From assembly GCA_965262715.1 (NCBI GenBank), contig OZ253553.1, positions 1,056,001 through 1,120,000 of the forward strand: a stretch of 64,000 bases of DNA. The letters run 5' to 3'. Source of the DNA: Bdellovibrionales bacterium (GTDB taxonomy: Bacteria; Bdellovibrionota; Bdellovibrionia; Bdellovibrionales; JAUICD01). This document shows, piece after piece, positions 30,797 to 32,905 of the stretch. Each line of letters starts with the position of its first letter. Within the stretch, counting starts at the first letter, position 1. Made by a program: the position numbers and the translations under genes. A model generated the notes under the pieces. The model did not search any database and was not told the DNA's origin. It saw only the letters and a list, made by a program, of their open reading frames with translations.

Positions 30797-32905
30797 ATGA
30801 ACTTTGAAAAGGTAAAATCATATCATATTTTGTTTTTTGCAATACTCTTTGTAAAAATAGTGCTCGGATCAGTTTTGGCTTCAAAAGTCTTAACTGATCT
30901 TTTTATCCCCTTCCTTGATTACTTTGTAGAAACTTTCTCTAACCCCTATGATAAATTCCTCAATATAGGCCCAAAAGATCATTTTCCATATCCAACACTC
31001 ATGCTCTATATTATGTCCCTTCCTAAAATACTGTTTGGATGGATAGCACCAGAAAATCCTTTTTTTAAATTATTCCTCTATCGCCTTCCTCTGCTGATGG
31101 CTGATATTGCTATTTTTTTAATTCTTAAAGAATGGCTCAAAGGGCAACTGACATCAAGGCTTATATGGCTCTACTGGTTATCACCAGTTCTTATTTATAT
31201 TAGCTATATTCATGGTCAGTTAGATGTGATCCCTATCGCCCTACTTTTTATGAGTTTGTACTTTTTGTTTAAAGATAGAATTCCAAGTTTTAAAAAAATA
31301 AATCTATCAGCCCTCTTATTAGGATTTTCCTTAGCTACAAAAACACATATTGCTCTCGTCTATCCTTTCTTCTTCCTGTTCCTTATATCTAAAGGAGTAC
31401 CTTTAAAACATTTGATTGTCTTTGCAGCTGTATCTTTCGGTACGTTTTTTATAGTGAATGCTCCTTATATTTTTGATCCCTCTTTTATTGAAATGGTTTT
31501 TCAAAATAGAGGGCAAGAAAAACTCTTTAATGCAATCTTCCAATTAGATGGTCTGCCCATTTATATCATCCCCTGTTTAATGCTTCTTTTGTTTATAAGA
31601 GGGATATGGATTAAAAGCTATAATCGAGATATCTTTATGATGTTTCTTGGCTTTAACTTTAGTCTTGTTCTACTATTTATCCCACCTATGCCCGGATGGT
31701 ATTTTTGGCTGATACCCTTTTTAGCCTATTTTTATATTAGAGCTGAAAATGAAGCCTCACATCTACTCTTTTTTGGACTACAAGGATTCTATATCCTCTA
31801 TTTTATGGTTTCAAAAAATGCTGACTATTTAGAAGTTTTTCAGCTTATATCACCAGAAATCATGACAGAACCAACATTTTATACTCTTCTCTCAAATGTA
31901 GGCATTAATTCCAATGCAGTTGTAGGAGTAGTCTTCACAGGCCTACAAACGATACTCTTAATCAACTGTGTTTTTATTTATAGAAAAGGTTTAGATAGTT
32001 ATACAAAGCATAAGCTCACTTCTTCACCCTTTCTTGTAGGGATAGGGGGTGACTCGGCTGTAGGAAAATCTACACTTGCTGATACCCTTTTAAATATATT
32101 CACTCCCTTAAATGCTACAGTCTTAAGAGGGGATGATATGCATAAATGGCAAAGAGGAGATGAAAAATGGAATGAATTCACTCACTTAAACCCAAAAGCC
32201 AATCAATTACATAAAGAAATCCATTTTTTAAAAAAGCTAAAAGCCGGGCATAAAATCAGTCGAAGGAAATATGACCACAATACCGGTCAGTTTACAAAAG
32301 AAGCCACTATATCACCTAAAAACTTAACCGTGTTTGAAGGACTCCATCCATTTTATCTCACATCACAAGCTCGACTGTATGATCTTAAAATATTTGTAAA
32401 ACCTACAACTGATCTTGTTCATCACTGGAAAATTGTTCGAGATAGACAAGAGAGAGGCTATTCAAAAGAAAAAATTCTGCAGTCTTTGAAACAAAGAGAA
32501 CATGATTCTAAAAAATATATACAAACTCAAATAGATAAAGCAGATATTGTGATCGAACCTATACCTGTAGAAAAAATACAAAATATCGGTGATAAAGAGG
32601 AAAAACTTGATGTATATTATAAAATATTGTTATCAAATGATGTGTATATAGAACCTATTATTGAAGCACTACAAAATATTGAAACTCTACATATAACACA
32701 TGAATACACTGAAGAAGCCTATCAATCTGTTATTTTAAAAGGCCACTGCCCTCTAAAAGAAATTAAAAAAATAGGAAGCCATTACATTAAAGGACTAGAA
32801 GGATTAGGGCTGACAATTCCAAGTGAATTGAAAGATTCTTTTGGAGTTTTAATGCTTCTTGTCACCTATTATATTTTTGAAAAGGCCGATAATGAAAAAG
32901 AATAA
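30797..32905 (+). CDS. Fusion of a GT-C-type membrane glycosyltransferase (PIG-M/GT87-like) and a phosphoribulokinase-like P-loop kinase
   Basis: N-terminal part: FPYP, LLMAD, SPV...S..HGQLD, LATK, WYFW. C-terminal part: GIGGDSAVGKST, DD.H, LNPKAN, YDH.TG, EGLHPFY, WKI.RD..ERG, YI..Q...ADIVI. Confidence 0.8.
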   Translation: MNFEKVKSYHILFFAILFVKIVLGSVLASKVLTDLFIPFLDYFVETFSNPYDKFLNIGPKDHFPYPTLMLYIMSLPKILFGWIAPENPFFKLFLYRLPLLMADIAIFLILKEWLKGQLTSRLIWLYWLSPVLIYISYIHGQLDVIPIALLFMSLYFLFKDRIPSFKKINLSALLLGFSLATKTHIALVYPFFFLFLISKGVPLKHLIVFAAVSFGTFFIVNAPYIFDPSFIEMVFQNRGQEKLFNAIFQLDGLPIYIIPCLMLLLFIRGIWIKSYNRDIFMMFLGFNFSLVLLFIPPMPGWYFWLIPFLAYFYIRAENEASHLLFFGLQGFYILYFMVSKNADYLEVFQLISPEIMTEPTFYTLLSNVGINSNAVVGVVFTGLQTILLINCVFIYRKGLDSYTKHKLTSSPFLVGIGGDSAVGKSTLADTLLNIFTPLNATVLRGDDMHKWQRGDEKWNEFTHLNPKANQLHKEIHFLKKLKAGHKISRRKYDHNTGQFTKEATISPKNLTVFEGLHPFYLTSQARLYDLKIFVKPTTDLVHHWKIVRDRQERGYSKEKILQSLKQREHDSKKYIQTQIDKADIVIEPIPVEKIQNIGDKEEKLDVYYKILLSNDVYIEPIIEALQNIETLHITHEYTEEAYQSVILKGHCPLKEIKKIGSHYIKGLEGLGLTIPSELKDSFGVLMLLVTYYIFEKADNEKE

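Follow-up and report, generated by a model that had tools for sequence, protein, structure and literature searches.

Phosphoribulokinase (PRK) of the plant, cyanobacterial and archaeal type is built on a catalytic Asp/His dyad, as described in the available part of PMC9978339, and for the Methanospirillum enzyme (MhPRK) the available text of PMC5241800 names H55, R59, R62, Y98, H100, K151 and R154 as the residues that bind ribulose 5-phosphate (Ru5P) and ATP, adding that Arg62 is not conserved in every PRK. In this study we describe a gene in which a kinase of this type is joined, within a single open reading frame (ORF), to a membrane domain with the GT-C glycosyltransferase fold. The gene lies in a stretch of 64,000 nucleotides from a Bdellovibrionales bacterium (assembly GCA_965262715.1, contig OZ253553.1, positions 1,056,001 to 1,120,000), hereafter the window, and is one part of a cassette of seven to eight genes that goes beyond what a preliminary description of the window had reported. 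We consider it probable that the fusion protein carries out both the opening reaction and a later one in a pathway, encoded by the cassette, that is predicted to put a pentulose-derived sugar on a cell-surface glycan.

Lipid-linked side-chain systems provide a second point of comparison. GtrA/GtrB/Gtr* and the phosphoribosyl pyrophosphate-dependent pentofuranose system of Citrobacter youngae (available text of PMC11127046) have in common with the cassette a lipid-carrier loader, a flippase (GtrA, in those loci that have it) and a GT-C-fold protein, and probably also the addition of the side chain on the outside; they differ from it in that the cassette donor is predicted to come from a PRK, a HAD phosphatase, an aldolase-fold protein, a GDPD-fold protein and two nucleotidyltransferases (NTases), and in that the cassette GT-C domain is conserved and fused to a kinase. 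In the main text of PMC11127046, as available, there are zero occurrences of ribulose, xylulose or nucleotidyltransferase. A third point of comparison is the E. coli K4 capsule, where deletion of kfoE yields non-fructosylated chondroitin (available text of PMC7925653). Xylulose is rare in bacterial polysaccharides according to the accessible part of PMC8707391, and a 2019 review of E. coli O-antigens describes, in its accessible part, O-antigen clusters without genes for a xylulofuranose donor (PMC7685785); the available portions of PMC12409901, PMC11924219, PMC7901785 and PMC7725333 contain no ketose donor pathway. Within a literature coverage that leaves out most subscription journals, neither the fusion, nor the cassette, nor a donor route started by PRK was found described.

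Results

The fusion was confirmed as a single ORF with exactly the limits first reported. A search of a protein collection, in which 8,000 candidates were scored, returned 578 relatives of the fusion at E <= 0.001, and among the matches listed 115 of the 119 non-self homologues, with 42-92% identity, align over 95% or more of the query. Because near-full-length homologues recur over this range, the fusion is not an assembly error, and the objection that it might be a sequencing artefact is ruled out. One public contig covers the gene with zero differences; it is possibly the source of this very DNA and not an independent observation. Three small-share runs do not cover the gene from end to end. 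Recurrence was surveyed by a scan of one genome per species, in which 541 stretches encode a relative of the fusion; the locus analyses refer to the best 80 of these 541 plus the window (81 loci). The record titles of the best 80 name Bdellovibrionota, Alpha- and Gammaproteobacteria, Bacteroidota, Patescibacteria, Melainabacteria, a spirochaete, Deferribacterota and Paenibacillus. At closer range the fusion was found in no more than 3 of 40 relatives, and it is absent from the single same-genus genome searched. Residue conservation was counted over 88 family sequences, and the AlphaFold model was made from an alignment of 88 sequences. Open frames of 701-716 aa with weak PF00485 matches are candidate relatives in seven genomes (G108, G111, G105, G096, G123, G126, G132). 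Forty matches to the kinase half among proteins of 163-520 aa, many of them on short contigs, were considered as stand-alone kinases and were not counted as such.

By profile and model comparison, residues 403-702 are a full-length PRK. All motifs of the series on which this assignment was originally based (GIGGDSAVGKST, GDDMH, LNPKAN, YDHNTG, EGLHP, WKIVRDRQERG, YIQTQIDKAD) were found in the ORF, and the preference for PRK over uridine kinase is now borne out by model scores, fold, domain content, a tree and an AU test. The kinase half matches the Pfam PRK family at E 1e-40 and scores 180.9 bits with NCBIfam PRK07429 against 69.7 with udk, whose cut-off of 220.3 is not reached. Both by sequence and by fold, the closest solved proteins are the 'cyanobacteria specific' PRKs and those of Methanospirillum, Synechococcus and plants, with uridine kinases behind; the model superposes on 9qko with Z 31.3 (rmsd 2.4, 280 residues aligned) and on 5b3f with Z 30.1, and 276-280 residues align to PRK structures as opposed to 195 to uridine kinase. 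The C-terminal domain of PRK is present, with the 5b3f profile match spanning positions 407-690. The equivalents of the catalytic dyad are D446 (87/88) and H494 (88/88), the P-loop lysine K424 is found in 88/88, and an ungapped mapping of the MhPRK residues identifies H449, R453, Y492, H494 and R548, each in 88/88, and K545 in 85/88. The fused kinase and the PRKs of plant, cyanobacterial and archaeal type (9qko/9qkp/9qkn, 5b3f, 6hzk/6kev, 6h7g) share the P-loop and the dyad, have the same two domains, and agree in all but one of the seven Ru5P/ATP residues; from these features and the model we infer kinase activity on Ru5P. It differs from them in being joined to a membrane domain and in occurring mostly in genomes where RuBisCO was not found. 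The genes around ten 'cyanobacteria-specific' PRKs showed no common pattern by eye.

The kinase tree was calculated with 42 of the 77 kinase cores collected, with no archaeal PRK among them and with record annotation on only three of the reference rows, the remaining labels having been assigned in this analysis. In this tree the 20 fused kinases fall within a PRK clade with support 100/99, apart from the uridine kinases, and forcing them to group with seven uridine kinases is rejected with p-AU 2e-7, the grouping having been chosen after inspection of the tree. The window kinase clusters with those of two Bdellovibrionales metagenome-assembled genomes (98/88). A long Sinorhizobium PRK branch adjoins the fused clade, which has by itself a support of 78/0. 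From the sequence comparisons, the fused kinase is best described as a sister clade to the PRK07429 subfamily.

Two earlier observations on the kinase were followed further. The replaced P-loop Cys, which had been taken as a sign that a Calvin-cycle enzyme was repurposed, is indeed the rule in the family (Cys in only 1/88), but it is uninformative in this respect, since P-loops without Cys are also found in 9qko (GDSAAGKT), 5b3f (GDSGSGKS) and a mycobacterial PRK. The lack of a RuBisCO gene, noted before for the window, holds for the whole genome: none was detected in an assembly that is 92.7% complete, by a search whose positive control was found in 5 of 14 genomes, and the fusion gene is the sole PF00485 match there. 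Because no RuBisCO was detected in its own genome, the window kinase is not classed as a Calvin-cycle PRK. Among 50 carrier genomes, which account for 50 of the 80 loci, a RuBisCO-family match of unassigned form is present in 4.

The assignment of the N-terminal half to GT-C is upheld by its AlphaFold model. In a fold search against 48,161 solved chains, residues 1-400 match GPI mannosyltransferase I (9wno) with Z 27.2 (rmsd 3.7, 352 residues aligned), ALG3 with 26.4, ALG6 with 25.2, ArnT with 19.7 and PimE with 18.9. Of the PIG-M/GT87-like character that had been proposed, the fold part stands; in Pfam, GT87 is matched only weakly (E <= 0.05) in 8 of 28 family members and Alg6_Alg8 in 7 of 28, with zero matches for this half of the window protein. 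GPI mannosyltransferase I, ALG3, ALG6 and PimE share the fold and presumably the topology, but they are only 10-15% identical to the membrane half, in whose family the Asp of the first loop is not conserved. Over the 12 helices, whose limits were taken from the AlphaFold model, the number of Lys plus Arg per sequence alternates between 1.9-3.6 for the inner loops and 0-1.4 for the outer ones. We infer from this pattern that the kinase and both termini are cytoplasmic and that the GT-C motifs are on the outer face of the membrane, as are S29, F36, P50-Y51, F63-P66, the FPYP motif, Q141, D143, K182 and G300-W301. D103, Q141, D143, K182, G300 and W301 are unchanged in 88/88.

The recurring partners of the fusion were recognized when ORFs from the window and the 80 loci were grouped into clusters; as the partner profiles were built from the same loci, the counts are a tally and not an independent test. 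In the 41 loci that are fully flanked, NTase A is found in 40, NTase B in 40, the family 2 glycosyltransferase (GT2) in 39, the aldolase-fold protein in 37, the GDPD-like protein in 36, the HAD phosphatase in 35 and GtrA in 25; the six partners other than GtrA occur all together in 31/41. The corresponding numbers for all 80 loci are 74, 70, 64, 70, 65, 67 and 41. The window genome has a single copy of each of the six, all within 28083-38823 (Table 1). The two NTases are paralogous, and the nearest protein to both is 4EVW from Vibrio. The nearest models for the GT2 are PgfS, ArnC and dolichyl-phosphate hexose transferase, every score being under the cut-off; its H-x-D stands where enzymes of the dolichyl-phosphate mannose synthase type have DxD. 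The GDPD-like protein of 206 aa has no Pfam match and a sequence search of the PDB gave nothing useful; the fold search succeeded, with a match to 2pz0 (Z 17.6, rmsd 2.5, 186 residues aligned). Six Bacteroidota loci are without the GDPD-like gene and the aldolase gene and have a different protein in that place; the one such protein that was tested is a canonical GDPD. A search of three of these genomes, which detected the GDPD-like gene in two positive genomes, found no copy of it at another site. Since a canonical GDPD takes the place of the GDPD-like gene there, the phosphodiesterase function appears to be kept.

Table 1. Coordinates of the fusion gene, its domains and the neighbouring genes in the window
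Feature	Position	Strand	Remarks
GT-C-fold/phosphoribulokinase fusion gene	30797..32905	+	702 aa; ATG start; pLDDT 93.2, pTM 0.90
Membrane domain, aa 1-400, GT-C fold	30797..31996	+	12 predicted transmembrane helices, both termini inside
Full-length PRK, aa 403-702 (by profile and model)	32003..32902	+	Catalytic and C-terminal domain; D446, H449, R453, Y492, H494, K545, R548
Class II aldolase/epimerase-fold protein	32892..33776	+	Starts (ATG) inside the 3' end of the fusion gene; Glu and three His conserved
HAD phosphatase	28083..28772	+	Best NCBIfam model haloarchaeal RuBP 5-phosphatase, 145 bits, below the cut-off of 330
GDPD/PLC-like phosphodiesterase-fold protein	35399..36019	+	206 aa; invariant H6, R7, E24, D26, H38
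GT2, polyprenol-phosphate glycosyltransferase type	36486..37223	-	H-x-D at the usual DxD position, 59/59
Nucleotidyltransferase B, KfoH/4EVW-like	37220..38020	-	
Nucleotidyltransferase A, paralogue of B	38017..38823	-	Likely start ATG at 38796
TylF-like methyltransferase, accessory	28818..29534	-	15/81 loci
Class I methyltransferase, accessory	29963..30793	+	Ends 3 nt before the fusion gene; 4/81 loci
Polytopic membrane protein, no family match	25435..27960	-	841 aa; candidate strain-specific transferase, from position only

The cassette is patchy and mobile. E. coli, Hirschia and Azospirillum each have a complete copy on a plasmid, the Azospirillum copy adjoining ABC exporter genes and gmd, and these plasmid neighbours, together with the partners themselves, favour the surface-glycan context first proposed. 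In E. coli the cassette is present in 2 of 5,426 genomes, both times on a plasmid, and because both copies are plasmid-borne it is not tied to the serotype of a solved structure. One of the two, NZ_CP145712.1 (locus L082), is a 33-kb IncR plasmid with the whole cassette near IS26; the 3.8 kb searched are identical on the second E. coli plasmid. In the window the cassette is rearranged and broken up by an AbiEi-type gene and small ORFs. A 104-nt copy of the 3' end of the HAD gene, 77% identical, lies at 29748-29851, just upstream of the methyltransferase gene, and is possibly a remnant of rearrangement.

Starting from a Citrobacter plasmid locus, we reached capsule and O-antigen loci of E. coli in which an APH-type kinase, a small HAD protein and an NTase form a trio. 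One of these, L098, we take to be K4 region 2 by gene order and protein sizes, as its record is without kfo names. Like the cassette, it has a homologous KfoH-type NTase beside a kinase and a HAD phosphatase; unlike in the cassette, its kinase is APH-like, its HAD protein is small and no GT-C is annotated, and PRK, aldolase and GDPD-like protein were not detected in it. Among about 60 sequences, both NTase profiles match its KfoH-position protein (E 1.6e-18 and 5.8e-23), and since kfoE is needed for fructosylation in K4 the NTase family is thereby connected with a side chain that is a ketose. A KfoD-like profile gave E 0.006 from two barely alignable sequences and is a lead only. In a DNA search of E. 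coli genomes, the window NTase genes and a Scandinavium NTase gene had no matches.

Five plasmid loci carry the NTases, the GDPD-like protein and the HAD phosphatase with no PRK annotated nearby, and for this reason these enzymes form a wider core; with fructose bisphosphate as donor, for example, PRK would be unnecessary. In a Rhizobium plasmid (L089:383-11420) such a module stands directly after genes for an FGGY kinase, a dehydrogenase, a TIM-barrel protein, TPI and RpiB. These upstream genes resemble those of erythritol catabolism, and the module may activate a four-carbon ketose. Two further E. coli loci carry genes like those of K4. Between gnd and ugd of NZ_CP059835.1 (L099:10596-18159) there are genes for a GT2, a KfoE-like protein, a HAD protein, a KfoH-like NTase, a 926-aa protein and GtrA, a set that resembles the K4-type ketose module adapted to a lipid carrier. 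Between galF and gnd of NZ_CP025842.1 (L096:13346-24825) an ABC-type O-antigen locus has KfoE-, HAD- and KfoH-like genes and WavE; it might encode a ketose-containing O-antigen, for example the O92 fructan.

The soluble enzymes are also found in viral contigs, for which we used the 43 closest of 63 aldolase loci, many of the contigs being near-duplicates and not independent events. PRK is present in 42/43, nearly always fused to the aldolase, and these kinases retain the same residues in 39-41 of 41, with W544 varying. A KfoI-type HAD occurs in 17/43 and a short GDPD-like ORF in 40/43, the latter by a profile to which four of the same contigs contributed the sequences; the GT-C half, the GT2 and GtrA are found in 0/43. 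Among 50 viral NTase loci, 41 have the aldolase and just 2 have PRK. Since viral loci carry the soluble enzymes without the membrane parts, the former appear to be a separable donor-making unit; on this sequence evidence the membrane parts would therefore be one delivery route for its product. In one viral contig (L157:4204-9002) all six soluble enzymes, with a stand-alone PRK, are directly followed by a TET-associated glycosyltransferase (PF20691, E 2e-10), and here the donor might serve to modify DNA or the virion.

Discussion

These results can be arranged in a pathway of five steps. The cytoplasmic kinase would convert Ru5P to ribulose 1,5-bisphosphate (RuBP), an activity suggested by the residues, fold and tree position observed. 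The HAD phosphatase would then take the 5-phosphate off RuBP to give a ketose 1-phosphate; closure of the furanose ring in a pentulose requires a free 5-OH. The class II aldolase-fold enzyme, whose family acts mostly on ketose 1-phosphates, would alter the ketose phosphate, most simply by epimerisation at C4, and as some loci are without it this enzyme likely sets the identity of the sugar. In the fourth and least secure step, one NTase would form a nucleoside diphosphate (NDP)-1-ketose, the GDPD-fold enzyme would shift the phosphate to the anomeric C2 by way of a 1,2-cyclic phosphate, giving a ketose 2-phosphate, and the second NTase would produce the NDP-2-ketose. A cyclic phosphate is the usual intermediate of the GDPD phosphodiesterase fold. 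Finally, the GT2 would load polyprenol phosphate, a flippase (GtrA where present) would turn the lipid over, and the GT-C domain would transfer the sugar outside. That RuBP, NDP-1-ketose, the 1,2-cyclic phosphate and then NDP-ribulose or NDP-xylulose make up an undescribed route to a keto-pentofuranose donor, feeding either the lipid carrier and GT-C in cells or soluble transferases of phages and giant viruses, is a possibility that we advance tentatively and with considerable doubt.

The preliminary description had sugar activation tethered to the transferase. This idea has to be given up in its original form: kinase and transferase motifs are on opposite faces of the membrane in the predicted topology, so that direct channelling is unlikely, and the six partner genes come between the two steps of the proposed pathway. 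The fusion would hold the committed step at the membrane, with no direct product hand-over across it.

Several observations weigh against the pathway. With regard to the kinase, its PRK07429 score is below the cut-off of 236, placing it outside that subfamily, and the fused kinases make up a separate clade within the PRK tree; the equivalent of MhPRK Arg62 is missing, and W458, H463 and R489 are peculiar to the family. The substrate is possibly a pentulose phosphate other than Ru5P. With regard to the membrane half, it also resembles PIG-U, the non-catalytic U subunit of GPI transamidase (Z 22.6), and the acidic residue with which the first outer loop begins (D34), the usual catalytic position of this GT-C group, varies, being D in 50/88 and E in 13/88; to judge from its conservation, the invariant D143 could be a stand-in. 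In 50/81 loci another polytopic membrane protein is encoded close to the cassette and could be the real transferase, a count that was made within two genes of the cassette by crude hydropathy, with no control, and that includes likely flippases. HAD is missing from 6/41 fully flanked loci, and GtrA was not found in the window genome, where other flippase families were not searched. With its different kinase and no GDPD-like protein detected, the K4 module backs ketose activation and not the cyclic-phosphate route, and no carrier strain is tied to a solved glycan structure.

Among the other explanations, the one that survives best, though we hold it unlikely, keeps the PRK-type entry and has the aldolase-fold enzyme act directly on the kinase product, cleaving or rearranging it so that a phospho-linked substituent or a sugar that is branched or shorter results, with the two NTases activating different building blocks. 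It would account for PRK and aldolase sharing one ORF in most viral loci, for five cellular loci with fusion ORFs of 1058-1073 aa and no separate aldolase ORF (the aldolase profile still scores in two of them, L027 and L029), for H-x-D instead of DxD in the GT2, and for the single NTase detected in many viral loci. It is at odds with the conserved core being without a reductase and with the aldolase not being found in any of five carrier genomes picked for their aldolase-less loci, by a search that included no positive control; the same profile does find the aldolase in viral loci. Quite unlikely, too, is the explanation in which the fused GT-C domain is not the final transferase but binds or presents the sugar on its lipid carrier, or has a conserved lipid as its acceptor, while the variable neighbouring membrane protein decorates the glycan. 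A mean column identity of about 50% across many phyla, which would be unexpected of an acceptor-specific enzyme, agrees with it, as do the variable Asp of the first loop and the second membrane protein just mentioned, which has a PMT_2 match in 2 of 5 representatives tested; however, the invariant residues of the outer face resemble a retained active site, and the membrane-protein count is uncontrolled. That the kinase is a uridine or nucleoside kinase unrelated to glycan donors, as the 'uridine kinase' labels of JGI and RefSeq say, is very improbable: PF00485 is common to both enzymes and the fusion is the only such gene in the window genome, but the udk score, the C-terminal domain, the tree and the AU test speak for PRK, and two carriers have a separate uridine-kinase-like gene. 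Hardly credible is a catabolic pentose-bisphosphate shunt with the glycan genes as bystanders (RuBP to ribulose 1-phosphate and on to dihydroxyacetone phosphate and glycolaldehyde), which recalls the haloarchaeal RuBP 5-phosphatase and ribulose-1-phosphate aldolase (NF053830, NF053831), two enzymes whose folds and order of action on RuBP agree with those of the cassette and which are the best NCBIfam model for the HAD and a weak one for the aldolase (E 1.4e-5). Against it, both scores are far below cut-off; the cassette genes lie together with genes for nucleotidyltransferases and glycosyltransferases, the kinase protein itself includes a GT-C fold, no partner is more constant than the NTases (40/41), which viral loci have too, and ATP would be spent merely to lose the other phosphate.

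If the fused kinase works as a PRK, as in the preferred pathway of pentulose transfer to surface glycans, many heterotrophs and viral contigs would make RuBP for glycan building, and RuBP would gain a use beyond carbon fixation and nucleoside breakdown. To read carbon fixation or salvage from a 'PRK' or 'uridine kinase' label in such a genome would then be misleading. For the pentuloses of surface glycans the cassette would offer a first donor pathway that can be tested, and as a small set of soluble enzymes it could be reconstituted for testing ketopentose activation. Since it is mobile, being found on plasmids and in 3/40 relatives, it could switch surface antigens and phage receptors in one step.

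Other features of the window

The window is rich in insertions at 19428-20669, 24056-25260, 33971-34561, 36098-36454 and 42685-43683, where two transposase-like regions (by eye), the AbiEi-type gene, a PD-(D/E)XK gene and a fragment with the same 3' end as the latter were recognized. Two paralogous large membrane proteins with 42-46% identity and no Pfam match, possibly surface glycosyltransferases, are encoded at 11893-14400 (-) and 21071-23260 (+). At 172-5448 (-) there are three tandem paralogues that read, by eye, like peptide-binding ABC substrate proteins.

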